From Felis catus (lineage: Eukaryota), in assembly GCF_018350175.1 (NCBI RefSeq), contig NC_058368.1, positions 43,464,001-43,528,000 of the forward strand: a stretch of DNA of 64,000 nucleotides, written 5' to 3'. Shown one piece after another: positions 2,368 to 63,334 of this stretch. The notes beneath the pieces were generated by a model that did no database searches, had not been told where the DNA came from, and was given only the letters and a program-made list of their open reading frames with translations. Each line of letters opens with the position of its first letter. Positions within the stretch are counted from its first letter, which is position 1. A program made the translations under genes and the position numbers.

Positions 2368-4439
2368 TGTTGATGAAGTCCCAGTAGTCCAATAGTTCAT
2401 TTTTGCTTTTATTTCCCTTGCTCCTGGAGACATGTCAAGTAACTAGTTGCTGCGGCCGAGTTCACAGGTTGCTGCCTATTTTCTCCTGTAGGATTTTGGT
2501 AGTTTCCTGTCTCACATTTAGGTATTTCATCCATTTTGAGTTTATTTTTGTGTATGGTGTAAGAAAGCTATCCAGTTTCATTTTTCTATGTGTCACTGTC
2601 CTGTTCTCCCAGCACCATGTGCTGAAGAGACTGTCTCTTTTCCATTGGATACTCTTTCCTGCTTTGTTGAAGATTAGTTGGCCATATATTTCTCTGTCTG
2701 TTTCTGAATTCTCTATTCCTTTGAACTGTGTGTTTTTGTGCCAATCCATACTTTCTTGATGATTACAGCTTTGTAATACAGCTTAAGGTACGGACTTGTG
2801 ATGCCTCCAGCTTTTATTTTCATCTTTCAACATAATTTTGGCTATTTGGGGTCTTTTCTGGTTCCATTCAAATTTTAGGATTGTTTGTTCTAGCTCTGTG
2901 AAGAATGCTGGTGTTATTGTGATAGGAATTGCATTTAATGTGTAGAATGCTTTGAGTAGTATTGACATTTTAACAATATTTGTTCTTCCAATTCATGAGC
3001 ATGGAATGTTCTTCCATTTCTTTATGTCTTTCTCATTTTTTTTCATAAGATTTCTATAGTTTTCAGCATACAGATCTTTTACCTCTTTGGTTAATTGTAT
3101 TCCTAGGTATCCTATGGTTTTGGTGCAACCGTAAATGGGATTGATTCCTTGATATCTCTTTCTGCTGCTTCGTTATTGGTATATAGAAATGCAACCCATT
3201 TCTGTACATTGATTTTATATCCTGCGACTTTGCTGATTTCCTGTATCAGCTCTAGCAGTTTTTTGGTGAAGTCTTTGGGGTTGTCCATGTAAAGTATCAT
3301 GTCATCTGTGAAGAGTGAAAGTTTGACTTCTTTATTGCCAATTTGGATGCCTTTCATTGCTGCTGAGGCTAGGACTTCCAGTAATATGTTGAACAACAGT
3401 GGTGAGAGTGGACATCCTGTTGTTCTCCTGATCCCAGGGGGAAAGCTCTCAGTTTTTCCCCATTGAGGATGATATGAGTTGTGGGCCTCTCATATATGGC
3501 TTTTATGATGTTAAGATATGTTCCTTCTATCCCTACTTTCTTGAGTGTTTTTATCAAGAAAGGATGCTGTATTTTGTCAAATGCCTCTTTTGCTTCTATT
3601 GAAAGAATCATATGGCTCTTATCCCTTCTTTTATTAATGTGGAGTACCATATTGATTGATTTGAGAATATTGCACCAGCCCTGCAACCCAAGAATAAATC
3701 CCACTTGACCATGGTGAATAATTCTTTTAATGTACTGTTGAATTTGATTTGCTAGTATCTGCGCAGCAAAGGAAACAATCAACAAAACTAATAGGCAATG
3801 GACGGAATGGGAGGAGATGTTTGCAAATGACGTATCAGATAATGGGTTAGTATTCAAAATCTATAAAGAACTTACCAAACCCACCACCCCCCCCCAAAAA
3901 AAAACAGTGAAGAAATGGGCAAAAAACATGAACAGACACTTTTTCAAAGAAGAAATCCAGATGGTTAACAGATGGATGAAAAGATGCTCAGTATCACTCA
4001 TCATCAGGGAAATACAAATCAAAACCACAATGAGATACCACCTGACACCTGTCAGAATGGCTAATATTAATAACTCAGGAAACAACAGATGCTGGTGAGG
4101 ATGTGGAGAAAAGGGAACCCTTTTCCACTGTTGGTAGGAATGCAAACTGGTGCAGCCACTCTGGAACAGCATGGAGGTTCCTCATCAAGTTAAAAATAAA
4201 ACTATCCTGCAACCTAGTAGCTGTACTACTAAGTATTTATACAAAGGATATAAAAATGCTGATTCAAAAGAGCAAATGTCCCCTGATGTTTATAGCAGCA
4301 CTATCAACAATAGCCAAATGATGGAAAGAACCCAAATGTCCATTGACTGATGTATGGATAAAGAAGATGTGATATGTGTGTGTGTGTGTGTATGTATATA
4401 TATATTTTTTTTCCAGTGTGTGTGTGTGTGTGTGTGTGT

Positions 4440-44383: not shown

Positions 44384-44429
<46 letters not shown>

Positions 44430-44470
44430 CTCTCTCTCTCTCTCAAAGTAAATAAACTATAAAAACAAAC
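44258..44470 (+). mobile_element. Can-SINE at an L1 internal deletion junction
   Basis: ggggcatgtaggtgattcag head, long (CT)n, A-tail; no TSD seen. Confidence 0.9.
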
Positions 44471-45048
44471 AAAACCCAAAAGTAGAAGAAGGAAATAATA
44501 ATGATTAGAGCAAAAATAAACAAAATAGAAACTATAACAACAAAAATTAGAACAGATCAGTGAAGCCAGGGACAGGTTCTTTGAAAAGATCAACAAAATT
44601 TATAAACTTTTATTTAGCCAGACTCATTGTCAAAAAACAAAAACAAAACAAAAAAAGGACTCAAACACAGATTCAAAGTGGATTAAGGACCTAAATGGGA
44701 GACCTGGAACTATAAAAATCTTAGAAGAGAGCATAGGCAGTAATTTTTCCAACATCTGACATAGCAACTCTTTTCTCAATATGTCTCCTGAGGCAAGGGA
44801 AGCACAAGCTAAAGTAAACTGTTGGGAATCTATCAAAATAAAAAGCTTCTGTGCAGCAAATGAAATAATCAACAAAATTTAAAGACACCTACTGAATGGG
44901 AGAAGATAATTGCAAATGACATATCTGATTAAGGGTCAGTATCCCCTCAATATAATACATCACATTAATAAAGAAAGTATAAGAGCCATATGATCATTTC
45001 AACAGTTACAGAAAAGCACTTAATAACATTCACTCATGATAAAAACCA

Positions 45049-45595
45049 TCAACAAAATAGGATTAGAGGGAACATACCACAACATAATAAAGGCCACACC
45101 TGAAAAACACACAGCGAATGTCATCCTAACTGGGAAAAACAAAAACAAAAACAAACAACTGAGAGCACTTCCTCTATGGTGAGGAACAAGAAGGAATGAT
45201 CCCTTTCACCACTATTACTTAACATAGTACTGGAAGTCCTAACCATAGGAATCAGACAAGAAAAAGAAATAAAAGGCATCCAAATCAGCAAGGAAGAAGT
45301 CAAACTTCCACTATTTGCAGATGGCATGATACTCTATATAGAAAACCTGACACTCCATCCCAAAACTGCTAGAACTGATAAATGAATTCAGTAAAGTCAC
45401 AGGAAACAATATCAGCATACAGCAATCTGTTGCATTTCTATACACAGATAATGAAGCAGCAGAAAGAGAAATTAAGGAATCAATCCCATTTACAAATGCA
45501 CCAAAAACTATAAGATACCTAGGAATAAACCTAGTCAAAGCGTTGAAAGACTCTGAAAACTATAAAACACTGATGAAAGACATTAAAGATGGTGC

Positions 45596-45639
<44 letters not shown>

Positions 45640-46598
45640 AGACATTCCAAGCTCATGGATTGGAAGAAAAAATATTGTTAAAATGCCTATACTGTCCAAA
45701 GCAATCTACACATTTAATGCAATCCCTATCAAAATACTACCAACCTTTTTTACAGAGCTAGAACAAACAATCCTAAAATTTGTATGGAAACACAAAGGAC
45801 CCCAAATAGCCAAAGTAACCTTGAAAAAGCAAAGCAAAGCTGGAGGTATCACAATTCTGGACTTCAACTTAATATTACAAAGCTGTAATATAAACAATAT
45901 ATATGAAAGGTGTAATCAAAACAGTGTAGTACTGACACAAAAATAGACACATAGATCAACACAACAGAACAGAAATCCAGAAATGAACCCACAACTATGT
46001 GGCCAATCAATCTTTGACAAAGTAGGAAAGAATATCCAGTGAGGAAAAAAAAAAGTCTCCTGAACAAATGGTGTTGGGAAAACTGGACAGAAACATGCAA
46101 AAGAATGAAACTGGACCATTTTCTTACACCATACACACAAATAAATTCAAAATGGATGAAAGACTTAAATGTGAGACCTGAAACCTAGAATCCTAGAACA
46201 AAGGCAGTAAACCTCTTTGACACTGGCTATAGCAACTTCTTACTCGATATGTCTGCTGAAGCAAGGGAAACAAAAGCAAAACCAAACTGTTGGGAATTCA
46301 TCAACACAAAAACCTCTGCACAGCAAAGGAAACAATCAACAAAACTTAAAGACAACCTACGGAATGGGAGGAGATACTTGCAAAGAGCATGATAAAGAGC
46401 TCTTTGTATCCCAAATACATAAAGAAATCATAAAACTCAACACCCAAACACAAATGATCCAATTAAGAAATGAGAAGATGTGAATAAAGAAGACATCCAG
46501 ATGGACAACAGACACATGGAAAGATGCTTGACATCACTCATCATCAGGGAAGTGCAAATCAAAACTACAAAACGACTCCACACCTGTTAGAATGGCTA
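45049..46598 (+). repeat. Left arm of a near-identical inverted repeat (L1 ORF2 sequence)
   Basis: Reverse complement of 57076-58672; identical ORF-track peptides in both arms, e.g. 46217..46483(+) = 57191..57457(-). Confidence 0.97.
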
Positions 46599-48159
46599 AA
46601 ACAGAAAACATAAGAAACAACAAGTGTTGGACAGGATATGGAGAAATAGGAACCCTTGTGCACTGTTTTTGTGAGTGCAAACTCTTGCAGCCATTCTGGA
46701 AAACAGCATGGTGTTTCCTCAAAAAATGTAAAACAGAACTACCTTCTACAATAACTGTACCACTGTGTATTTACCAACAAACAAACAAACAAACAAATAA
46801 AAAACACTAATTAATAGGGATTCATGCAGTCCTGTTTATTGCAGCAGTATTTACAATAGCCAGATTATGGGAGTAGCCCAAGTGCATCAGTAAATGAATG
46901 AATAAAGAGGAAGACACGCATACACACTGAAATATTATTCAGCCATAAAAATGAATTAAATCTTGCCATTTGGAACAACACTGATGGAGATATAGAGTAT
47001 AATGCTAATGCTAAGTGACATAAGTAGTTAGAGAAAGACAAATACCATATGATTTTATTCATATGTGGAATACAAGAAACAAAAAAATGATCAAAGGGAA
47101 AAAAGTGACAGAGGGAGAGAACACAAACTAAGAACCAGACTCTTAGCTATAGAGAATAAACTGTTTACCAGAGGGTAGATTTATGGTAGAATAAATGAAA
47201 TAGGTAATTGGGACTAAAGTGTACATTTGTCATGATGGGCACTGAGTAATGTACAGAATTGTTGAACCACTATATTGTATACCTGAAACTAATGTAACAC
47301 TGGATGTTATTATATTGGAATTAAAACTAAAAACTTAGTAAGATAAATAAATAAGTATATAAATAAATAAATATGTAAATATATAAATAAAAAAGCATTT
47401 AATAAAAAAATAGCCATTAAAGCACTGGGCATAACGGGAAGAATACTGATAACAGAATTCCAGCTTTATCATACTTTGTAAAATGGTTTTGTTTTAATGG
47501 ATTTCTTGTTTCATTATTTTATCAACTAAACTAAAATGGTTTCTGATTTCTTTGCAGGTCTCAGGGTGTGTATGGCATTATAAGTCTCCATATCTGAACC
47601 AAATTTTTGGTGTGGGCCATGGTCACTGCAAGTGACCATGATAATTAACTACCTCATGTCTATATTAGTTTACTAATTTCTGTATTAGCAAGTTTACTAA
47701 TTAATTATACTTTTAAATTAAAGAATGAGGAAATCTAGTCAGTCTGTATATTTTTTTACTCTAGAAAGAGTGCTAGTCATCAGAATTTTGGCATCAGCTA
47801 TTTTAGACTAGTGTTTTAGTGCATTTCAAATCACATTTCATAAAAAGGCCTTCCTTCTTACATATTACATCTGTTTCTGTTTACATCTTACATCCCTTTG
47901 GGACTTCCCAGAAATTTTTTCTTCAATCACTGAAATAAGGTATTTAAATAAATTAAATAAATACATTATTAAATTAAATAAAGAAGAACAGAAATAATTT
48001 ACTTATAGGCAGGGGTACTGATAAGAAATACAATAAACAAGATAGTTAGCTCAAAAATATCTAAGAAATGGAAAAGACAATGCTACAATAGATGATTTCT
48101 GGGCATTAGTATGTCTTAAGCACTAGGTTTCCAAGAGGATTAAAAAATAACCAAGATTT

Positions 48160-48380
48160 ACTGAACATATATAAGCACCACACATTGAGATTCTTTATAA
48201 ACGTTAGCTAATTCATCCTTGAATTGATTTTGAGGTGTTTATTTTTATCCTTATTTTATAAGAGTTTGAGACCCAGAGAATTTCATTGCCTTCAACAAAG
48301 TTTCATAGCTAGCAAGCGATAGAATTGGGCTTCATATCTACATCTTTCTAAATCCATAGCCCATACATGAACATAACTAT
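48160..48380 (-). mobile_element. MIR relic
   Basis: atttactgaacat...atttttatccttattttata...tttgagacccagagaa...catagctagcaag. Confidence 0.6.
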
Positions 48381-50349
48381 TGAATTCGTCAATTACATTA
48401 CACTGTGCATTAAAAATAACAAGAACACTTTTGCACCCATAATTTTATTTTAAATGTCATAGTGACTTGAGTACAGGATAATAGAAACTGCAGGATAATG
48501 TACCAAACTGCATGTTCCCTTAACCATTCTATGTTCCTCTCAACTCTTAATCAAGTAATCACAGATTTGGAAGGGGCTTAAAGGATCAGCTAATAGACAC
48601 TCTTCCCTGGGCATGATAACTGATATAAAGCATCCTCTACGATCAGTGCCTTCTTTCCCTTTTTTCTTCTAGGTACTATGCATCTCCATTTTGCAAACCA
48701 ATGATCCTTTTGTGGTGTATGCTCTATGATGCTAAAGAATATAAGCAAACAAACACTTAACATTTTATAAATAAACTCATGTACTTTTTTCTAAGTGAAT
48801 AATTTGTAAATTTAACATATGAAACTAAAAGCAATTTTGTGATTTACTGGAATTCATTATGCTAACCACAGTGTCCACTGTCTACTTTTATCCCTAGGCA
48901 ATTTTACTCCCCTTTTGTTGTGTTCATTTAGTTTTCTCTATCATATGTTTGTTATCTGTTAGTAAGTCATTGCAGCCTGTTTTTCAGCTTTAGGGGAGGA
49001 CAAATAATTTGGATTACTATCATAATTTGGGAAATATAATTAGTATGACTTTGTCAAGATGGTGTAAATAAGGAGAGTCACACCAGTCCCTAAGTTAGTC
49101 TCTCTCTCTCTCCTTGTTTTATTTGTTTTATATAGTGACTTAACTTGAGCTTAGTAGAAGAATACAGAAAAAAAGCTGCAAAAACCATACTTTAAGTCAC
49201 TGGCAGATTCTTCAGAGACTGACTTATTAAATACATATATTTATTTTTATATCTGAGTTTAAAGACTAAATTTACCACATAATATTCATATTTCACATGT
49301 ACATTTTGAATTGTAGATAATTGGTCAATATGGTCCTTCTGCACTTTAATCTTTAGCAGAAATCTGTCTGTAGTAAATTGTTCCCATTTAATTTCAACTA
49401 ATTCTATACAATAGGGTCCAATGCATTTTGACCTTAGTCTTCAGTGAGGAATGTATAAGATTGGTAATGTATATAGTATTTTCATTAGGCACTTACATGT
49501 GCAAGTGTTAATTATTAAAAAGAAAGAGAAAACAAGAACATATGATGCAAATATGATACTGCTTACCAGATATATAGTAGGATATAATTGATGATTTGTC
49601 TAAAAATCAAGTTACACTAGACAGTTCCATATCTATTTTAGTGGCATGTCAACATTGTGGCATTATATTACCTTTCATATAAAATTTCACTGTTCTAGAA
49701 GTAAATGCTGCCAATTTTTTTGTTATTTTTGAGTTACTGTTTTGATCAGTTTATTATTTAAATGTAATGCACTAAAGTTAATAATTTACATAATGGGGAA
49801 AAATACTGGAAACCAATTTTTAGTATCAACTATGTGACTGTTTAACCTTGAACTCAGGTCAATATTCTTGGGATTCCATTTTATTGAGATTTAGAATCAG
49901 AGTAACAGACCTACCCTGCTAGATACAATGGGATATTGTAGGGAATAGTTACATAGCATCTGTGTTAGCCGTATATTTATCAGAAATAGTAAAAGAGGAG
50001 CTTATAGAACTTGAAAGGTAGAAGGGGAGTGCATAATGAGGAATAACATAATTAAATAATTAAAATCTAAAGCAATGGATGTATTTAGCCTTGTGGGTAA
50101 AATCTTTGACCCTGTGACATCCAAGTTTGCTAGAATCCTAACTGTCTTATCATGGTTGAGATGTAAACTGAAATAAAATGATGAAAAGCTAAAACAAACA
50201 AACAAACAAAAACTAAACAACCAAAAAAACTAGAATCTGCAGAACCTTATTTATTATTTATAACTTCCTGACACCATATTTCACAGGAGAAGCTAGGATG
50301 GCAGGGTGGAAAATGTTGAATTTAAGTAGAAATAGTCAATTACCAGGTG

Positions 50350-50641
50350 CATCTAGGATGAACTACATTTGGGAAATCGTGCTGTTAAGTCCTTCTCTGT
50401 GAGGGCTAATTATTGTTTACCCTAAGAACATGTATACAATGGCTTGTGTCTGCTTGCCTATGAAAGGGGTAAGATTTCTCTTTGCCTTTGCAATCTTTTA
50501 GGGTACTGCCTGTGATGTATGCTACACTCTGGTTTAATGCTTATTCCATAATAAAACTGTTTTTTTCTCTACTACCTTTGTGGAGATGTTTTTTTGAATT
50601 GGGAAAAGATTTCATTTTTAATCATATTTGCCCAAAAAACA
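50350..50641 (+). mobile_element. MER34-like ERV1 LTR 3' part
   Basis: ctggtttaatgcttattccataataaaactgttttttt...ctactacctttgtggag...atatttgcccaaaaaaca. Confidence 0.65.
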
Positions 50642-51411
50642 GCAATATTTGTGTGTGTGTGCACATGTGTGCACACATATCTGCCCATTTGGGAAACTGT
50701 CAAAGAAAAAATGAGAATACTTGTATATTATTATATTGTATTCAGTTTAAATGGCTAATTAATTCTATTAGCTATTACATACATAGAGAACCCACTGTTC
50801 ATGGATAATTAGCTAACAATTTGATATTATACTTCTACTTTAAGGAGATATATAAAATAAACATTCTCCTTATTTTTTAACATGTATGTGCCAGATTTTA
50901 CAAATGTTGCCCAAAGCCACAGTTATTATAATCCACATTTTAAATAGTCCCATAACTTAACAGCTATCTATTGTTTAATTAAATTTCTGGCTCAAGATGG
51001 AGCTGTTCCTGCCCAACTTGCCACATCAACAAACTGAAACTTAGATGACTTTTGTGTCCCTATAAATGCTGTAAATTATGTAGTGATTATTCTTTCTACA
51101 GAAAAGCAAAAAATATAGGATGGCTGTAGGTGGGATTTTAAAATCTCAATAAAAGTTGCTAATTTGAAACCTAAGATGGGACATAAGTAGAAAGGCTGTT
51201 TCTAAGGTCACCTTCTGTTACCATCCTGAATTAAATGCACTTTGGGATAATATGAAATATTGCACTAGAAAATACACTTTGGAAAAATTCTAGTTGTATG
51301 TAACAGTGTGAGACAATAGGCCACGTTTTCTAACCAAAAAACAAACAAATTTGGAGGGGACAGCTCAAGAAATAGTAATGTGTTAAAATCTCTTTAAACA
51401 TCTAATATATA

Positions 51412-51439
51412 TATTTTTAAATGTTTATTTATTTTTTTT

Positions 51440-51485
<46 letters not shown>

Positions 51486-51606
51486 AGACACAGGATCCAG
51501 GCTCTGTGAGAATCTGACACAGGCGGGGGTTCGAACCCAAGAACCTTTGAGATCATAACCTGAGCCGAAGTTGGACACTTATGAAGCCAAGCCACCCAGG
51601 CATCCC
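51412..51606 (-). mobile_element. Can-SINE with expanded (GA)n
   Basis: gagatcataacctgagccgaagttggacactt...gccacccaggcatccc. Confidence 0.9.
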
Positions 51607-51913
51607 ATAAAATCTACATTTTTAAAACACTGGAAAGTTCCCAGTGCAAATTACATGTTTACCATACTTTTATCTCTTCCTCAGAAGAATCCTATTAAAA
51701 AGGGGGATGGGACAGATGGCTCACATCTATTGTTGATTTTGTAAACATTTTAAACTCAACTTACTGCATATTTTGCAGTGATCTGAAACATCTTTTACCA
51801 ATACCTATTTGCATTCAGTTGCCATTTGTTCAACCTATCAGGTATTTTTCTATGACTTTCTTTCTAACCTAAATGAAAATGATCCTGTGGACTATTTAAA
51901 CCTTGACTATCTC

Positions 51914-51914
51914 T

Positions 51915-51977
<63 letters not shown>

Positions 51978-52158
51978 TTTTAGAGAGAGAGTGCAAGCAG
52001 GGAAGAAGGACAAAAAAAGAAAGAAAATCTTGGGAGGGAGAGAGAATCCATGCTGAGTATGGGGCCTGATGTGGGGCTCGATTCCACAACCCTGGGATCA
52101 TGACATGAGCCCAACGAAGAGTCATTCATTCAATAGACTGAACCATCCAGGCACCCCT
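51914..52158 (-). mobile_element. Can-SINE with (TTTA)n tail
   Basis: gggatcatgacatgagc...actgaaccatccaggcacccc. Confidence 0.9.
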
Positions 52159-53663
52159 CAGATTTATTTTTAAAAACTGAATTTTATTATTTGATTAATG
52201 ATCTTATTTTACTTTTTGATGAATGGCATGTGACTGAAATGGAATGATTAAATGTAACCGAATAAAATGTCAGTTTACAACATCTTAAGACCTAGAATTA
52301 TCTCTGAGCTCCCTAAATCTCAGTTTGATTACTTTCACACCAAGATTCAAATGTTGCTATAAAAATAAAGACAAAAGACAATCTTGGGTAGACTATCCAC
52401 CACTTGAATTAAACTTGCTGATACTTTTATCTAGCCGTTAAAGTTTTCAAAGGATAGATATATTTTCTTTCTGAATTGTAGTATGCAAATTACTATTTTG
52501 TTTCTGTAAAATCTCACATGTATAGCCCCAACAATGTTTTTATGGGGTTGTCACTTGCTTTAATGAACACAGTTATGCACTGAGGAGTACTTAGTTCTGT
52601 TATAATGTGTCATATTATCAATTCCATTATAAATGTATCAACTAAGAAACTGATTCAGCAGCAGGGTAGTTGTTCTATTATAAAATTAACTTTCGGATCC
52701 AAAAAGGCCACATGAAAACTAAATGTGCCTATTATTATTAATAAATTTATTTCATTTTGATGTTGCTTATCAAACATTTTATGTTTATTTTTTCAATGTT
52801 TTTGGACACTACAGAAGTTGAAAACTACAAAAAATTGTTTTTGAAATTTTCATTAAGTTCTTGGCAAGAAAGGCAGAATTCAAGGAGATATACTTTTAAA
52901 ACATAATTAGCATTGATTGAATCTGTACATATAAATCCTAAAACACAGTCTTGTGATACTTCCCTAAGAGTCAATACCTGTAGGGCCACTTGAATTTGAC
53001 TAAAAACATTTAAAATATATTGCCAATAGTTTAGTGATATTGAGGTAGGTAAAGGAAGTAGAATAATACCTGCTGCAGAGAAAACAAGCAATTTTGAAAC
53101 AAAAATTCCGGGTCAGGAAACTAGAAATTTTGGAACCTACCTGTTAGTGCCTAAATCAGTGTATTGAGAATCTATCATACCAATTCTTTAACTTTTGCTA
53201 ATATTTACTTTGAAAATTTAAAATAGCAATAAGCCAGTGGTTCACCTGACCACATGGAGGGAATATGACACTGCTACTTCGAAAATATCTATTTGGCCAG
53301 CTGATCTGATATTTAAAAACTATACCACATGTCATACTGAAATATACTGGACAGCCATCCCTCTGAAGAATAGCATGATTGGAATAAAAAGGCCAATACA
53401 AATTATGTTGTCTCACCCTAAATGATTTGTAACTTGCAAAAAGAAATGGAGCAGTCATTCCAATCTTTATTGGTATCTAATAGATAATCAGCACCTTTTG
53501 AAATTATGTTATATCACGATAATTACAAGTTTCTAATTTTAAAATAGATGAATTAAAATGAACATACTTTTTAAACATGTTAATATGTGAAGTTTTTAGC
53601 AGGCAAATAAAAACAAGAAGGGAAATTTTTCATTTAAAAACTATATGTCTGCATGGTATTTTA

Positions 53664-53891
53664 TTTTATTTTTTAAGTTTATTTATTTATTTTGAAAGAG
53701 AGAGAGAAAGAGTGTGTGTGAGAGGGCGAGAGGCAGAGAGAGAGAGAGAGACAGAGAGAGAGAATCCCAAGCAGATTCCATGCTGTCAGCACAGAGCCCA
53801 ATGCAGAGCTTGATCTCATGTACTGTGAGATAATGACTTGAGCTGAAGTCAAGAGTCAGATGCTTAACTCACTGAGTAACTCAGGCACCCC
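53664..53891 (-). mobile_element. Can-SINE
   Basis: Typical body; atggtatttta repeated at 53653-53663 and 53898-53908. Confidence 0.92.
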
Positions 53892-56711
53892 ATTTATATG
53901 GTATTTTAATGCAATGAGCATGCATTACTTTTATTATTAGAGAAAAGAGACATATATGAAGAACTATGTGAAAATTGTAGTATTCTATATAGTATTTTAT
54001 ATATTAAGGGACATAACTATATAGCTTTGAAGGAATTTAGAAGTAAATGAGACTGCAAAGTCTTTATTGGGAGGATCTTGCATGAAAATTTGCTCTAGAT
54101 TTAAGCACTATGGAAATTTTATCCCATAATCAGAGAAGATGAGGTTTTAACCTGGAGCCTCACTCATTTTGAAAGTCATTCCAAGGATGCATTGTTATTA
54201 TAGGAATATCTGGGTTTAGCCAGGTTGTACCAGTGAAATGAGATTCATGCCCCAGAGGCAAACATTGAGGAAAAAAAAAAAGAAACATATTTTTTTTTAA
54301 GTGAAAAAAGCAGACCATCTTTAGGAGGGCAAGATACATTATGTTCTTGACCTAAGAAAGCTATAGGATAAAGGCTCTTTGCTGAAGGACAAATGTAGAA
54401 AGAATACATGGCAAAAAATATTATTTTTCTATGGGAAAATAAACTACCCAGAGACCTAACAAAACTCAACTGACCACAGGGGGCCATTCAGTCTGAGACA
54501 GATTCCTACAGCTAGAGAAGCAGAACTAAAGTCAGTCAAAGGCCAGAGATCCAATCAGAGAAATGTCAGTTTGAAAAATAGTGAGAAAAAAGTACCATGT
54601 AAGCTTGGAGTTTCAGAAGCTCCTTGGCATTTGCCTGGATAAAAAAGTTAATGGCTTTAGCAGAGCTTTTTTTTTTTTTTTTTTTTTTTTGATGAATAGT
54701 TTCGGGGAAGAACTGGCAGATAATAATGGAGTAGGGAAGGAAGTGAAGAAGCAGTCTTTGGTGATGGGAAGAGAAGGGATCCAGAACAATTGTGGAGAAC
54801 ATTTTCTTCATTTTATTAAAAGACAAAGTTGAACACACCAGAAAGATAAAAGCAAGATGGTAAGCTGAAAGTGGAGAAGTAATTGTAAGGGAAAGAAGGT
54901 ACCAAGTACCAAGTGCAGGTGCTAAGTCAAGTTGAGGACAGTAGAAAACTAGGATGTGTAGGGAAAAGTAGTAATCACAAGGCAGTGCTGAAAACCACAA
55001 ATTTGCTTTCCAAGTTATGTATGTCAGCACATAGCAAGAAGTCGTAGTTATGATAGAGGGCAAAAGGGAAAGGAAAGCACGGATTTGAGCATTTACAATA
55101 ATTAACCTAAAATCTAAAGTAGATAAAGAGGAGTATGAAGAAAATTTGCAGCTGAGGAATTGAGAAAAAGTTTTTCTAGTGCATCTGGATAAGTTGGCTG
55201 TCTTGATCAAGTTGGAGTATTGGGAGGTTGGAGGGAGAGGTGGGTTGTAAACCACCTAACAAGCTCTGTAATTCAATATAGTTTACCAATAGTGTTAGTG
55301 TATCTTCAGTTCATAATGGAAGATGTGGAGCTTCAACACAGTACATGTTTGATTGAACAAATAGTTAAACCAAAATGAAGTGCTTTATTACTATTAGTAT
55401 TAGTCCTGAAAATAAACCTGTTTGTAGCTAAGTTTCATGAAAAAGTACCACAATCTTTGTTAATATAATAATAAAAACCAGGAGGAGATTTTTGTTTGGT
55501 TTTTGTTCTTTTTTTTTTTTTTTTAATACAGCATTAGCTTTGCCATCAACTCTATGGATTTTAGGCCACATAGATCTTTTACTGGGAAACACAGACTATA
55601 AGCTATCCAGTTACTTGCTAATGATGTCAAATTTGATTTCCCTGCCATTCAAGTAGTCTCAAAAGTATGCTGATACAGCTGATATTTGAGAACATGAGGA
55701 ATAGGTTTCCTCTTGTTTCCTTAAAATTTTCCAAGATGCATTCTTGTATTCAGTTAGTTCACTGGAAATTATATACCTGAACCACATTACTGTCCCACCA
55801 CCACTACAAAATGCCTCTACAGAATAACCTTTATTATTTATGCTTAGTCTTCACCCAGAGATGCTATTAAAGCAGAAAAAAGAGAAATGTCCCTTATTAT
55901 TAGGAATATAATTGATTTGACAGCTCCCTGAACCACTATGCAAAAGTGTCTATGGCAGATCACTCTAAGAATCCTACAGGTGGAGGTTTTATTCCTCCTG
56001 ATGGCTTACTTTAGTTTGGGCTACTAGATAATTAAAGTTCCCTCACATTTCTTTGCCCAGTTTGCTCAGTTCCTGAACTTCTGCCCTTGTCTTATCTTTC
56101 TTTCTTGCTTTTTTTTTAAATTATTTTTTTCTGTATTTAATGTAAGACTTCCCAAAATGATTTTGTAACTGACAATCTATCCATAAAAAACATAGTAAAT
56201 CAGCTAATCATTCCTTGAATCAAATCAAATAATTTTTATTATTTATCAAAAAAATTAAATTATTTTTGACTAAAAAAGTTTAATTCTATTGGTTTATTTT
56301 TGTATTGTTAGTTTGTATCTAAGTTTTTATTTAAATTCTAGTAACATACAGTCTAATATTAGCTACAGATACACATTATAGTGATTCACCACTTCCATAC
56401 AATTCATGGTGCTCATCACAAGTACACTCCTTAATCCCCATCACCTATTTCACCCATTCCCCCAGCCCTCTGGTAAACATCACTGTGTTCTCCTTAGTTA
56501 AGAGTCTGTTCCTTGGTTTGCCTCTCTCTCTCTCTCTCTCTCCCCCCGCCTGCCTTTGTTTTCTTATTCTGTTTCTTAAATTCCACATATAATTGAAATC
56601 ATTTGGTAATTGTCTTTCTCTGACTGACTTATTTCACTTAGCATAATGCTCTCCAGCTCCCTCCACGTTGTTGCAAATGGCAAGATTTCATTCTTTTTGA
56701 TGGCTGAGTAA

Positions 56712-56723
56712 TATGTATGTGTG

Positions 56724-56772
<49 letters not shown>
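56712..56772. repeat. (TG)n microsatellite in L1
   Basis: Directly visible. Confidence 0.95.
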
Positions 56773-56773
<1 letters not shown>

Positions 56774-57075
56774 ACATCTTTATCCCTTTATTTGTCCATG
56801 CACACATGGCCTGTTTCTGTAATTTTGCTATTGTGTATAATGCTATTATAAATACTGAGGTGCTGTATCCTTTTGAAATAGTATTTTTGTATCCTTTGGG
56901 TAAAGACCTAGTACTGCAATTGCTGGATCAGAGTAGTTCTATTATTAGTTTTTGAGGAACATCCATAATCTTTTCCAGAATAGTTGCAACAGTTTGCATT
57001 CTGACCAACAGTGCAAGAGGGTTTTCCTTTCTCCACGTCCTCACTGACACTGGTTGTTTCTTGTGTTGCAGATTC

Positions 57076-58034
57076 TAGCCATTCTAACAGGTGTGGGGTC
57101 GTTTTGTAGTTTTGATTTGCACTTCCCTGATGATGAGTGATGTCAAGCATCTTTCCATGTGTCTGTTGTCCATCTGGATGTCTTCTTTATTCACATCTTC
57201 TCATTTCTTAATTGGATCATTTGTGTTTGGGTGTTGAGTTTTATGATTTCTTTATGTATTTGGGATACAAAGAGCTCTTTATCATGCTCTTTGCAAGTAT
57301 CTCCTCCCATTCCGTAGGTTGTCTTTAAGTTTTGTTGATTGTTTCCTTTGCTGTGCAGAGGTTTTTGTGTTGATGAATTCCCAACAGTTTGGTTTTGCTT
57401 TTGTTTCCCTTGCTTCAGCAGACATATCGAGTAAGAAGTTGCTATAGCCAGTGTCAAAGAGGTTTACTGCCTTTGTTCTAGGATTCTAGGTTTCAGGTCT
57501 CACATTTAAGTCTTTCATCCATTTTGAATTTATTTGTGTGTATGGTGTAAGAAAATGGTCCAGTTTCATTCTTTTGCATGTTTCTGTCCAGTTTTCCCAA
57601 CACCATTTGTTCAGGAGACTTTTTTTTTTCCTCACTGGATATTCTTTCCTACTTTGTCAAAGATTGATTGGCCACATAGTTGTGGGTTCATTTCTGGATT
57701 TCTGTTCTGTTGTGTTGATCTATGTGTCTATTTTTGTGTCAGTACTACACTGTTTTGATTACACCTTTCATATATATTGTTTATATTACAGCTTTGTAAT
57801 ATTAAGTTGAAGTCCAGAATTGTGATACCTCCAGCTTTGCTTTGCTTTTTCAAGGTTACTTTGGCTATTTGGGGTCCTTTGTGTTTCCATACAAATTTTA
57901 GGATTGTTTGTTCTAGCTCTGTAAAAAAGGTTGGTAGTATTTTGATAGGGATTGCATTAAATGTGTAGATTGCTTTGGACAGTATAGGCATTTTAACAAT
58001 ATTTTTTCTTCCAATCCATGAGCTTGGAATGTCT

Positions 58035-58091
<57 letters not shown>

Positions 58092-58672
58092 CGCACGCGC
58101 ACCATCTTTAATGTCTTTCATCAGTGTTTTATAGTTTTCAGAGTCTTTCAACGCTTTGACTAGGTTTATTCCTAGGTATCTTATAGTTTTTGGTGCATTT
58201 GTAAATGGGATTGATTCCTTAATTTCTCTTTCTGCTGCTTCATTATCTGTGTATAGAAATGCAACAGATTGCTGTATGCTGATATTGTTTCCTGTGACTT
58301 TACTGAATTCATTTATCAGTTCTAGCAGTTTTGGGATGGAGTGTCAGGTTTTCTATATAGAGTATCATGCCATCTGCAAATAGTGGAAGTTTGACTTCTT
58401 CCTTGCTGATTTGGATGCCTTTTATTTCTTTTTCTTGTCTGATTCCTATGGCTAGGACTTCCAGTACTATGTTAAGTAATAGTGGTGAAAGGGATCATTC
58501 CTTCTTGTTCCTCACCATAGAGGAAAAGCTCTCAGTTTTTGTTTGTTTGTTTTTGTTTTTGTTTTTTGTTTTTTTGTTTTTTTTTTTCCAGTTAGGATGA
58601 CATTCGCTGTGTGTTTTTCAGGTGTGGCCTTTATTATGTTGTGGTATGTTCCCTCTAATCCTATTTTGTTGA
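57076..58672 (-). repeat. Right arm of a near-identical inverted repeat (L1 ORF2 sequence)
   Basis: Reverse complement of 45049-46598; length difference lies in the (CG)n(CA)n and A-rich tracts. Confidence 0.97.
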
Positions 58673-60495
58673 GAGCTTTTGTCCAGAATGGATGTTATCG
58701 AGTGCTTTACTTGCAAATTTAAATGAACATATGGGTCTTATACTTTTATTAATGTGATGTATTATGTTTTGTCAATTTGTGACTATTGAACCACCCTTGC
58801 AACTAAGGAATAAATTCCACTTGATTGTGGTGAATGATTTTTTTAATGTATTGTTGGATTTCTTTTACTAGTATTTTATTGAGAATTTTGCATCTGTGTT
58901 CATCAGGGATATTGGTCTGTAGTTCTCTCTTTTAGTGGTGTGTTTATTTGCTTTTGGTATCAGTATAATGCTGTCCTCTTAGATGAATTTGGAAATTTTC
59001 CTTCCTTTTCTTTTTCTTTTTTTTTTTTTTTGAATATTTTGAGAAGAATAGGTCTTAACCCTTCTTTAAATGTTTGATAGAATTTGCCTGTGAAGCCATC
59101 TGGTCCTGGAATGCCTTCATTAGGAGTTTTTTGATTACTGGTTCAATTTCTTTGCAGGTTATTGGTCTGTTCAAATTGTCTTTTTCTTCCTGTTTCAACT
59201 GATAGTTTCTATGTTTCTAGGAATTTGTCTATTTATTCCATGTTATCCAGTTTGTTGGCATTTAGTTTTTCATAATATTCTCTTTTATTTGTTTGTATTT
59301 CTGTAATTTTTGCTTGTTATTTCACCTCTCTCATTTGTGATTTTATGTATTTGTCTCCTTTCTCTTTTTGATAACTCTGATAGAAATTTATCAATTTTAT
59401 TAATTTTTTCAAAGAACCAGCTCCTGGTTTCATTGATCTTTTCTATTGTATTTGTTTGATTAGTTTCTATATCATTATCTCTGGTCTCATCTTTTACTTA
59501 TTCCTTCTGCTGTCCTTAGGCTTTGCTGTTCTTTTTCTAGTTCCTTTTGGTTGTTTATTTGAGATTTTTCTTGTGTATTTATGTAGGTCTGTATTGCTAT
59601 ATACTTCCCCCTTAAGATGGCTTTTGCTGCATCACAAATGTTTTGAACATTATATTTTCATTTTTTTTTGTTTCCATGTATTTTTTTTTCTTCTTTGATT
59701 TCTCATTTGACACATTTATTGTTTTGTAGCATGTTGCTTAATCCATGTATTTATGGTCTTACTATATTTTTTCTTGTGGTTGACTTCTAGTTTCATAACA
59801 TTGTGGTCAGGAAAGGTGCATGGTGTGACTTCAATTTTCTGTGTTTGTTGAGGCCTGTTTTGTGATCTAATATGTGGTTTATTCTGGATAATGTTCCATG
59901 TGCACTTGAAAAGAATGTGTATTCTATTTTAGGATGAAATGTTTTAAATATGTCTTTTAAGTTCATCTGGTGTAGTGTGTCATTAAAAGCCATATTTTTC
60001 CTTGTTTTTTTTCTTTTTAGATGAGCAGTTCATTGTTATAAATGGGGTGTTAGTCTCCTATTATTATTGTATTATTATCAATTAGATCCTTATGTTTGTT
60101 TTTAATTGTCTTATATATTTGGATGCTCCAGGTTGGGTGCATAAATATTCAAAATTGTTATATCTTCTTGCAGGATTGTCCCCTTTATGATAATATAGTG
60201 TCCTTATTTGACTTTGTTACAGTCTTTGTTTTAAAGTAATTTGTCAGATATAAGTATTGCTACTCCAGCTTTCTATTGACATAAATTTGCGTAATAAATC
60301 TTCCTCTGTCCCTTCACTTTGTCTGCAGGTATCTAGGTCTGAAATGAGTCACTTGTAGGCAGCATATACATGGATCTTGTTTTTCTGTTTTTGTTTTATC
60401 TATTCTCACACCCTATATCTGTTGATTAGAGCATTAGTCCATTTACATTCAACATAATTATTGCTAGGTATGTATTTATTGCTATTTTATTACTT

Positions 60496-60699
60496 GATTT
60501 TAGTTTATTTTCATTTATTTTGAGAGAGAGATCGAGAGCAAGCAGGGGAGGGGCAGAGACAGAGGGAAACAGAATCCCAAGCAGGCTCCATACTGGCAGC
60601 ACAGAGACCAATGTGGGGCCTGAACTCACAAATGGTGAGATCATGACTTGAGCTAAAATCAAGAGTTGGACACTTAACTGACTGGGGCATCCAGGCGCC
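60496..60699 (-). mobile_element. Can-SINE inserted near the start of L1 ORF2
   Basis: TSD attttattactt 60484-60495/60700-60711. Confidence 0.95.
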
Positions 60700-63334
60700 A
60701 TTTTATTACTTCTTCTGTCATTGTTTCTGGAGATTTTGTCTGATTCCTTCTTGTCCTTGTCACTTTGGGGCTTTCCTTTCACCCAAAGAGTTCCCTTTAA
60801 TATTTCTTGCAGTGCTGGTTTAGTGGTCATGAAGTCCTTCATTTTGTGTTTGTTGGGTAAACTCTTTGTATTCTATTCTGAGTGATAGCCTTGTTGAGTA
60901 GAGTATTTTGACTACAGGTTTTTCCCATTCAGCACTTTGAATATATTATGTCATTCCCTTCTGCTGTGCCAAGTTTCTGTTAAGAAATTTCCAGCTAGAC
61001 TTGTGGGCTTTTCCTTGTAAGTTAAGGATTCTTTTGTTTTGCTGCTTTTAAGATTTTCTCTTTACCATTATATTTTGCAAATTTAATTATAAGATGTTTT
61101 AATGTTGGCGTGCTTTTGTTGATTTTGATGGGAGTTGTTCATGCTTGCTGGAAGTGGACATCTGTTCCCTTCCCCATATTAAGGGAGTTTTCAGCTGTTA
61201 TTTCTTAAAGTAAATTTTCTTCCCCCTTTGTTTCTTTTCTTTTTCTGAGGCTCCTATAATACAAATGTTATCATGCTTGATGGAGTCACTGATTTCCCTA
61301 AATCTATTCTCATGTTGCGTAATTCTTCTTCCTCTCTTTTGTTCACCTTCATTACCTTCCATTACTTTATGTATGAACTTAATGACATACGACTATGTCA
61401 CTAATTTGTTCCTTTATTTCTTCCAGCCAGCTATTCATTGCATCAAGCCTGTTTGCATTCTCATTTAATACACTCTTTATTTCTGACTGATACTTTTTTG
61501 AAATTCTTTTATGTCTGTAGGAAGGGTCTCCCTTTTGTCTTCTATTATTTTCTCAAGCCCCATAAGTATCCTTGTGATTGTTGCTTTAAATTCTTCATTA
61601 GGTATGTTACTTATATCTCTTTCTCTTCCATCTCTGGCCATGGTGGCCTTATCTTGTTCTTTCATTTGGGATAAATTCATCTGTCTTCACATTTTGTGTA
61701 ATTCTCTGGCTTCTTCTCTGTGTTAGAAAAGACAGTTATGTCTATTGATGCTGAAAGTAATGGCCTTAAGAAGAAGAGATGATGTGGTGTCCAGGTCCTT
61801 GTGCATCAGGGATTTTTTTTCCAGTGTATGCTGCATACACTCTGCTGTTATGTTTTCACTGCTGTATCCTTTAGGCCAGTCATCTACAGAGGCTCTCCTT
61901 GCCTGTTTTAGGCAGTGTTTGGGTCCTGGCCTGAATGTAGCGAGTTTTAACGAGGTGTGCCCTGGACTAATTGTGAAATGAGCTGACACCACCTCCAACA
62001 AAACTTAGGCCCTGTAGAACTCTGTGGTTTTGATATGTGGTGTGAGGAGGGTTTTGTTTGTTTGTTTGTTTGTTTGTTTGTTTGTTTTTGCTGGTCTTCT
62101 TGGGTAGGAGCCCACTGTTCTGAGACTGAGAGACCATCCCACCAGAGTGCAGAGTGCTGGAGGTGAGGTCTTGGTGTAAGTAAGTTAGGCAGTCAGTGTT
62201 GGCATTGCACTGCTTCCCAACGAGTGGCTCCATGTTTATGCTGTGGGGTAGAGGAGGGGAATGATGCTCATCAGCTCCTTTTTTCCCAGAAAACTGTCTC
62301 TGTGAAAGTTGCTTCTTAGGGTTGCACTCTGAGAAGAGTGAATAATCTCCCCACTCTGTGCCCCAGGCACTGTTCAGATTGCTGTTTCCATGTTGTCTGC
62401 CCCTGGGTTGTTTGCCTGCCTTCTTTCCAAGAGAAGCACAGTATCCTCATGGCTCTATCCCAACCAAGCCCATTGATCTTTATAACTTCAGGCTTTAAGC
62501 TCTGTTGGTTGCAAGAACTCACAAAATCCAACCCCTCTTATTTCCCAAGCCAATGGCTTTAGGGTAACATTCTCCTTTGTGCTTTCCCCTGTGTGCTCCT
62601 CTCTCTTACACCCTTCTCCAGGGCCATAGCACCTACCTTCTGCAGCACCCACAATCTGTTTCTTCCCTAGACTACATCTCCGCACTTCCTATCTTCTTCA
62701 AATTGGACTTTTCTTTCCCTTTAGTTGTGGAGTTTAGTTGTTCTGTCAGTCTTCAGGTTGATTTTGTGGTATTTAGGAAGATTTGATAGTTATCTAGTTG
62801 TGTTCATGGTACAGGCTGAGCCTAGGGTCCTCTTATTCTGCAGCCATCTTCCTCTCTAGTGTATTGTTAATTTTGAAATCTTTGTGTGACAGTAGCATGT
62901 TTTAAGAGTGAATTTCAGGTGTTTCTTCTTCTAAATACTTAAAATATTAATTTATTAAACATGACTTGTTTATTATTTGAGTTTAATGTGGTAACTATAG
63001 CCTTGCCTCAATTATGAACTTTTAATGATTTTGGTCTATGAAATTAAGAAAGTCAAGTACTTGTCTTATTATTAAGTACTCAGATTAAACAAATGTTTTA
63101 CATCTTGTATATCTTGTAAATTCTTTGTGTAGAGTAGTTTTAGATGACTTAAGTGTTTATGTACCCATACCTATATGCATAGTGGTTTCACAAGTATTGA
63201 AAATTTCAAGACCCACTGAATAACAAATTTGATACTGTGTTAAAGTGATAAATATAAATATCACATAAAATTACATCTGAAAAATGTTTAATTTATGTGG
63301 AATTAACCAGACAGGAGATAAGAAACCACTGTAT

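Follow-up and report, generated by a model that had tools for sequence, protein, structure and literature searches.

The 64,000-nucleotide stretch of Felis catus DNA analysed here (the window) contains two decayed L1 elements in inverted orientation that share a 1.55-kb tract of near identity, and this tract is probably the product of non-allelic (ectopic) gene conversion between two L1 remnants of independent origin. The event is of a known kind and a clean example of it; it reveals no new mechanism. A gapped alignment revealed 45049-46598 on the forward strand (arm A, the converted tract in L1-A) to be the reverse complement of 57076-58672 (arm B, its counterpart in L1-B on the reverse strand), with 1545 matches and five substitutions over the 1550 bases of arm A (99.7% identity). 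The substitutions lie at 45134, 45167, 45168, 45242, and 46577 of arm A, and the centre of the tract (45243-46576, 1334 bp) has zero substitutions between the arms. Three simple-repeat indels make arm B 47 bases longer; they fall in an A-run and a (CAAA)n repeat after 45133 and 45156 and in a (CG)n(CA)n repeat after 45608, with the (CA)n arrays of the tract centre differing by 10 units. An earlier note on this DNA had placed the inverted arms at the same positions, which gapped alignment reproduced exactly to the base, and its list of edge substitutions and repeat-length changes comprised all five substitutions found. The inverted pair was recovered both by a repeat search and by self-BLAST of the window, which aligned 44949-47373 with 58768-56287 at 86% identity over 2530 columns; among the 14 intra-window pairs listed, the arm pair alone exceeded 81%.

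Both elements have the properties of L1 remnants, namely homology to the ORF2 reverse transcriptase, A-rich 3' ends, and very many dispersed genomic copies, with first-look genomic candidates for four pieces numbering 19,940, 13,493, 9,266, and 14,099. Arm A is decayed ORF2, in which 45351-45758 matches residues 716-795 of human L1 ORF2p (E 1.8e-17 to 1.3e-16; 5 distinct PDB sequences); by extrapolation from the sequence match, the arm may correspond roughly to ORF2p residues 620-1130. Five short stop-free pieces of the tract matched no Pfam family. Outside the tract, L1-A comprises a 5' stub at 44949-45048 (+), where the element is 5'-truncated, and a 3' part at 46599-47415 (+) holding the end of ORF2 and the 3'UTR, with an A-rich tail at ~47340-47415. 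L1-B comprises a 5' part at 58673-61700 (-), whose upstream limit is approximate and which includes a weak trace of the ORF1 C terminus, below the Pfam cut-off, at 60429-60872 (-), and a 3' part at 56240-57075 (-) with an A-rich end near 56240-56290. The arms are separated by 10,477 nt (46599-57075). Within this spacer, the sequence between both L1 3' ends (47416-56239) contains an open frame of 229 codons that matches nothing in Pfam; Rfam gave no family there, nor any match in the window as a whole. A third L1 fragment at 44671-44916 (+), 130 bp upstream of L1-A, is homologous to the tract interior at 78% and is not homogenised, serving as an internal unconverted control.

At both ends of the tract, identity falls from 99.7% to 73-78% within a few bases. 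The adjoining 100 bp on the left, which are the sole collinear homology to L1-B on that side, align in register at 78% (78 matches, 17 mismatches, and 5 gaps), and the 775 bp on the right, up to 47373, align in register at 73% (564 matches, 153 mismatches, and 58 gaps). In these alignments the register is kept within 1 nt across both boundaries and nothing has been added or lost at the junctions. A high-identity tract thus sits inside collinear low-identity flanks as an in-register replacement without net insertion at its ends, the arrangement by which gene conversion is recognised. The earlier note had described the two L1s as heavily diverged outside the arms, which holds, and their 3'UTRs as different, which holds less well: the 3' ends are still alignable to ~47373/56287 and are therefore not unrelated UTRs. 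The disabling changes common to both arms might also be explained by one already-decayed source that gave rise to both, through either retrotransposition or inverted segmental duplication. The probability of such an origin is close to nil, as the identity stops inside each L1 and diverged homologous L1 continues in register on both sides, which contradicts it. Moreover, the tract ends without poly(A) or target-site structure, and no third copy above 82% was present among the best 40 of 19,940 candidates scored.

The longest exact runs between the flanks of L1-A and L1-B are 19 and 15 bp. The uninterrupted homology usually required for mammalian recombination far exceeds these lengths, and runs of at most 19 bp in flanks of 73-78% identity count against gene conversion. 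An excerpt of PMC8230782 gives 89-100% as the optimum of similarity, a range that the flanks do not reach, which would make the founding event a homeologous exchange of an unusual sort. The short exact matches, together with a template that is close by and inverted, would suit a replicative template switch between the inverted L1s (microhomology- or homeology-mediated break-induced replication) in place of classical homologous recombination. We consider such a switch unlikely; the junctions are in register within 1 nt and have neither gained nor lost sequence, as in homology-guided repair, although both routes leave products that are indistinguishable by sequence.

The two L1s are independent insertions, paralogues and not one recent duplication, as judged from their unequal 5' extent and from the random level at which their flanks share derived states. 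To the left of the tract, the homology stops at 44949, the truncation point of L1-A; L1-B, by contrast, stays collinear with other L1 copies for over 1.1 kb past the tract. Of the 103 and 95 derived sites in the two right flanks, 9 are common to both, giving a normalised value of 0.091, as compared with 0.094 +/- 0.039 in random copy pairs (n = 150); the derived states common to both show no excess over random pairs and no clustering near the boundary. When each flank was compared with the genome, the other flank was absent from the best 40 scored matches. The p-distance between the right flanks is 0.274, with own divergences of 0.146 and 0.134. These distances fit the star phylogeny of one family, and would also be consistent with long-term concerted evolution, in which exchange has proceeded since the L1s were young and the tract is the remnant of a wider conversion domain. 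Concerted evolution would have the merit of needing no exchange between partners of 73-78% identity. It is nonetheless highly unlikely, since the A-B mismatch outside the tract is flat, at ~0.16-0.26 from the first 100 columns outward, with no zone of intermediate divergence, and since shared derived states are neither in excess nor clustered at the boundary.

The tract is itself old and carries decay of its own. Among the best 40 of 19,940 candidates scored, the closest genomic matches other than the arms themselves are 75-82% identical to it, and its divergence from the majority state among other copies, at 9-10%, is that of a typical copy. FADG is seen in the tract, and two insertions, a (CG)n(CA)n microsatellite at 45590-45635 (+; ~58039-58085 in arm B, where it is 20 nt longer) and a 24-nt insertion at 45887-45910 (+; exact copy at 57764-57787, -), are private to it, each being found in 0/20 other copies. 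FADG and the two insertions, which the earlier note had reported as common to both arms, were thereby confirmed. The claim in that note of copying at the DNA level is likewise upheld by these insertions, the in-register replacement, the 73-78% flanks, and the 75-82% identity to the other copies scored. The divergences from the majority state were 8.8-10.1% for the tract, 9.9-12.1% for the left flank of L1-B, and 13.4-14.7% and 13.8-15.7% for the right flanks of L1-B and L1-A, respectively. Reading the tract as an "island of low decay" was judged not robust, because the reference sets were each selected on one region, the ratio of core to right divergence spans 0.58-1.32 in 14 other copies as compared with 0.63-0.65 here, and the tract versus the left flank of L1-B alone gave p = 0.41. 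Divergence references were required to have BLAST coverage of at least 1000 bp for the core (20/48 kept) or at least 600 bp for the right flank (39/48 kept). For the core/right comparison and the W-to-S comparison described below, 6/20 references were dropped for lost collinearity (L055, L061, L064, L066, L067, and L069). Copies were compared by pairwise and fast alignments.

Under the gene conversion that we favour, the two L1s would be separate, ancient insertions arranged tail to tail in inverted orientation, with L1-A on the forward strand from 44949 to ~47415 and L1-B on the reverse strand from ~61700 down to ~56240. At a far later time, 1.55 kb of one element would have replaced the homologous part of the other with the register unchanged, presumably in a non-reciprocal manner. 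The likely route would be repair of a broken or fork-collapsed L1 from the inverted template, which lies on the same chromosome at a distance of 10.5 kb. Copying may have run from L1-B as the source into L1-A, although flank comparisons give this direction only a slight lean. In the eight copies closest to the tract, right flanks were nearer that of L1-B than that of L1-A in 8/8 (mean +0.035). In the same test, in which some pairwise alignments were spurious, 19/20 copies picked by the right flank of L1-B (+0.030) and 5/20 of those picked by the right flank of L1-A (-0.012) were nearer L1-B. The latter two groups of picked copies showed no difference in core identity to the tract (9 versus 12 copies; Mann-Whitney p = 0.30; Spearman coefficient 0.30, p = 0.12). 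The absence of substitutions in 1334 bp suggests, at a mammalian rate, that homogenisation of the tract centre dates back less than about 0.5 My, in agreement with the earlier description of the copying as recent.

The spread of the substitutions is unlike simple decay after the event, with the largest gap covering 1334/1550 bp (P = 3.3e-4, or P = 2.1e-3 with the dinucleotide counted once). All five are close to an edge, at most 194 bp from the left one or 22 bp from the right one. It is possible, though on balance doubtful, that after the founding conversion a repeated and perhaps GC-biased conversion between the arms has maintained the 1.55-kb island as a mini-palindrome, differences surviving at the rarely converted edges. 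Consistent with this, changes private to the tract are rich in W-to-S, at 55:33 as compared with 89:106 for the flanks of the tract (odds ratio 2.0, p = 0.010), and a GC bias is described for sex-chromosome palindromes in excerpts of PMC3723533 and PMC8981503. However, a single event whose heteroduplex ends underwent patchy mismatch repair explains the edges equally well, the W-to-S test was one among several tried and similar ratios occur in some other L1 copies, and the (CA)n arrays of the "clean" centre are 10 units apart. The ongoing, palindrome-like conversion proposed in the earlier note keeps the edge clustering and the W-to-S hint on its side, with the flat flanks, the lack of excess in shared states, and 1.55-kb arms of separate origin standing against it. 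A rather improbable extension is that an exchange between L1 fossils ~75% alike produced a perfect 1.55-kb inverted repeat that is now self-sustained by repeated GC-biased conversion and able to flip the 10.5-kb spacer; if true, it would be a snapshot of the birth of a palindrome from dispersed repeats and not from a duplication.

An error of assembly or polishing, with the true sequence of one arm being diverged, would also produce two near-identical arms, and here the support from read words covers 46400-56399, where 20/24 runs listed (11 studies, one species label) contained 0.90 or more of the words sampled; of arm A, this interval takes in just the final 199 bp. Such an error is very improbable. 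The arms differ at five substitutions and three repeat lengths and so are not a computational copy of one another, and we infer that an in-register swap of a 1.55-kb, 25%-diverged segment corresponds to no known failure of polishing or collapse. Among the best 40 candidates scored, the two near-identical places in the 71-contig genome are both on this contig. We take the assembly to be correct at this locus and gene conversion to be the probable origin of the tract.

For the dating of transposable elements, the locus is a very clean natural example of old, dead L1 copies that do not always decay independently, and both divergence-based ages and phylogenies of element copies can be locally distorted by such exchanges. 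It indicates that copying is possible between partners whose identity outside the tract is no more than about three-quarters. The event has created a long perfect inverted repeat, through which the spacer could become inverted and which, if transcribed, might give rise to double-stranded RNA.

The arms of palindromes are halves of a duplication, many kb in length, around a comparatively short spacer. Here, the arms are 1.55 kb, stem from separate L1s, and flank a spacer of 10,477 nt; the arm identity of more than 99% is that of a palindrome. As portrayed in excerpts of PMC3723533 and PMC8981503, sex-chromosome palindromes resemble the cat locus in having inverted arms more than 99% identical, differences at the edges, and a hint of GC bias. 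They differ in their many-kb arms, as compared with 1.55 kb here, where the spacer is ~7 times as long as the arm, and in that the cat arms derive from two separate insertions with no duplication, on a 239-Mb contig of autosome size, the longest contig among those of the loci retrieved. LINE-LINE pairs subject to non-allelic homologous recombination, as excerpted from PMC4344489, are comparable in form, inverted L1s with more than 1 kb at more than 96% identity being the class scored as inversion substrates; unlike those pairs, the cat arms owe their identity secondarily to conversion and not to the youth of the elements. Non-allelic conversion between copies of transposable elements has been reviewed, with raised rates for copies within 10 kb, in the excerpted text of PMC6598467. 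As in the Alu-Alu and LTR-LTR conversions outlined there and in part of PMC8230782, a dispersed copy has been overwritten to give a mosaic element with sharp ends, whereas the cat partners are inverted remnants of old L1 ORF2 only 73-78% identical outside the tract, and the tract, at 1.55 kb, is several-fold longer than a whole Alu (about 300 nt). Tremblay et al. 2000, cited for break repair between homeologous LINEs in an excerpt of PMC7407515, offers a parallel to the break proposed here in one L1 and mended from a diverged L1. In that study the break was induced in cultured cells, whereas the cat event would be germline and apparently fixed, with its donor in cis 10.5 kb away.

Arm A (45049–46598, +) was found by base-by-base listing to be the reverse complement of arm B (57076–58672, −), with five substitutions (arm A positions 45134, 45167, 45168, 45242, and 46577) and an excess of 47 bases in arm B, spread over three simple-repeat indels. 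The centre of the tract (45243–46576, 1334 bp) contains no substitutions. The arm coordinates and substitutions listed in the earlier note agree exactly with this alignment, and two further features that it reported were confirmed in the sequence, namely the change of the RT motif FADD to FADG and an extra 24-nt motif, exact at 45887–45910 (+) and 57764–57787 (−), where none is expected by chance. A repeat search of the window returned inverted pairs jointly spanning 45010–46725 and 56949–58711, and self-BLAST extended the match to 44949–47373/58768–56287 at 86% identity over 2530 columns, the sole pair above 81% among the 14 repeat pairs listed. In the gapped alignment, ∼45212–46590 gave 97–100 matches per 100-column step, save for two steps with simple-repeat indels, dropping to 65–78 on either side. 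The near-identical inverted tract is real as far as sequence can show. Among 24 sequencing runs found, with one species label throughout, 20 (11 studies) contained a fraction of 0.90 or more of the words sampled from 46400–56399, an interval that reaches no further into arm A than its final 199 bp. Two microsatellites, (TC)30 at 44386–44444 and (AG)33 at 53697–53763, account for a weak inverted pair (79%, 159 nt) with no relation to the L1 tract.

The arms lie within two L1 elements arranged tail to tail, L1-A (44949 to ∼47415, +) and L1-B (∼61700 to ∼56240, −), with A-rich tails near 47340–47415 and 56240–56290, respectively. L1-A is 5′-truncated at 44949, with other, non-collinear L1 pieces upstream; the piece at 44671–44916 is 78% identical to the tract interior and was not homogenised. 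L1-B remains collinear with other copies for >1.1 kb past the tract and includes a weak trace of ORF1 (60429–60872, E 0.0028, under the Pfam cut-off). Its 3′ part also holds a (TG)29 array (56714–56772, −), a separate microsatellite outside the converted stretch that BLAST aligns to the (CA)n of arm A. Elsewhere in the window, a third and far better preserved L1 (14000–18540, +; ∼71% to L1-B) has a 294-aa open frame matching Exo_endo_phos (E 4e-19) and a 266-aa one matching RVT_1 (E 6e-17) and took no part in the exchange, and an L1 remnant at 2389–4400 (−), with RVT_1 in 3372–3860 (E 3e-10), is 69–80% identical to the window's other L1s. The spacer carries a 229-codon stop-free frame (54569–55255, −) without a Pfam family, the L/S/F-rich translation of which resembles a chance product of pyrimidine-rich DNA.

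The tract itself is old L1 sequence with private decay and not a young element, judging from its comparison with other copies. A stop-free stretch at 45351–45758 matches residues 716–795 of human L1 ORF2p (five distinct PDB sequences, E 1.8e-17 to 1.3e-16); no Pfam families were found in five short pieces of the tract. When the 2.43-Gb genome (71 contigs, with the window at C1:43464001–43528000) was searched with 45212–46590, scoring covered 40 of the 19,940 first-look candidates, which makes all counts lower bounds; the query itself and the partner arm were recovered, with all others scored at 75–82% identity. At ∼9–10% of well-supported sites the tract departs from the majority state of other copies, a level typical of the family, and its (CG)n(CA)n and 24-nt insertions are missing from 20/20 aligned other copies. 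GATGGC, the codon form of the FADG change that the earlier note took as private decay, is present in two of the other copies spanning that site. The tract at first seemed less decayed than any of the three flanks, but this difference was lost after allowing for the choice of reference sets.

Outside the tract, L1-A and L1-B gave 78 matches, 17 mismatches, and 5 gaps in the left flank (44949–45048) and 564, 153, and 58, respectively, in the right flank (46599–47373), with longest exact runs of 19 and 15 bp. The mismatch level is flat outward, starting with the first 100 columns beyond the tract. Genome searches with the two right flanks gave best other matches of 72–80%, and the partner's right flank was not found in the best 40 scored matches of either search. 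Alignment with 39 other copies revealed nine derived sites common to the right flanks of L1-A and L1-B (out of 103 and 95), scattered and away from the tract boundary; normalised sharing was 0.091, compared with 0.094 ± 0.039 for 150 random copy pairs, 47% of which reached the L1-A/L1-B value. The lack of excess sharing, together with the absence of a zone of intermediate divergence from the flanks, argues against long-term concerted evolution of both L1s from insertion onward. Ectopic gene conversion between these two L1 fossils, which lie in inverted orientation, best explains the arrangement; 1.55 kb would have been replaced in register within independent, diverged elements, the signature of non-allelic gene conversion. 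The DNA-level copying proposed in the earlier note thus has good support.

The direction of copying leans weakly toward L1-B as the putative source. In all eight copies picked as nearest the tract, the right flank was nearer that of L1-B than that of L1-A (mean +0.035). Copies picked by the L1-B right flank were nearer it in 19/20 cases (+0.030), and those picked by the L1-A right flank in only 5/20 (−0.012), with no difference between the two sets in core closeness to the tract (p = 0.30). Judged against other copies, the derived base lies in arm A at four of the five differing sites and in arm B at one.

At a substitution rate of 2.2e-9 per site per year, the absence of differences over the 1334 bp of the centre bounds its most recent homogenisation at ∼0.5 My; the whole tract (5 in 1550) would give 0.7 My, and the edge zones taken by themselves (5 in 216) ∼5 My. 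The probability of a substitution-free centre under uniform scatter is 3.3e-4, or 2.1e-3 with the adjacent pair counted once. This edge pattern fits either a single event with patchy repair at the heteroduplex ends or later, shorter conversions within the tract, and "ongoing" conversion is unproven. Among the private changes of the tract, W-to-S is in excess (55:33 versus 89:106 in its own flanks, the left of L1-B and the right of both elements; odds ratio 2.0, p = 0.010, in one of several tests tried and with similar ratios in some other copies), and its S-to-W rate is 0.094 versus 0.166–0.223 in the flanks. The W-to-S excess may reflect GC-biased conversion, although it is not robustly established.

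The analogy with sex-chromosome palindromes, also drawn in the earlier note, is loose. A similarity optimum of 89–100% is quoted in PMC8230782, and LINE pairs enriched at NAHR breakpoints are given as 95–96% identical in PMC4344489; against both, the low flank identity of L1-A and L1-B and their lack of a long exact run are unusual. Consequently, a homeology-guided template switch is a live mechanistic variant, which sequence alone cannot separate from gene conversion. Break repair between homeologous LINEs is credited to Tremblay et al. 2000 in PMC7407515, and non-allelic gene conversion, known for TE copies, is said in PMC6598467 to be commoner within 10 kb. Ectopic conversion between TE copies is thus an already documented type of event, of which this pair is a further instance.
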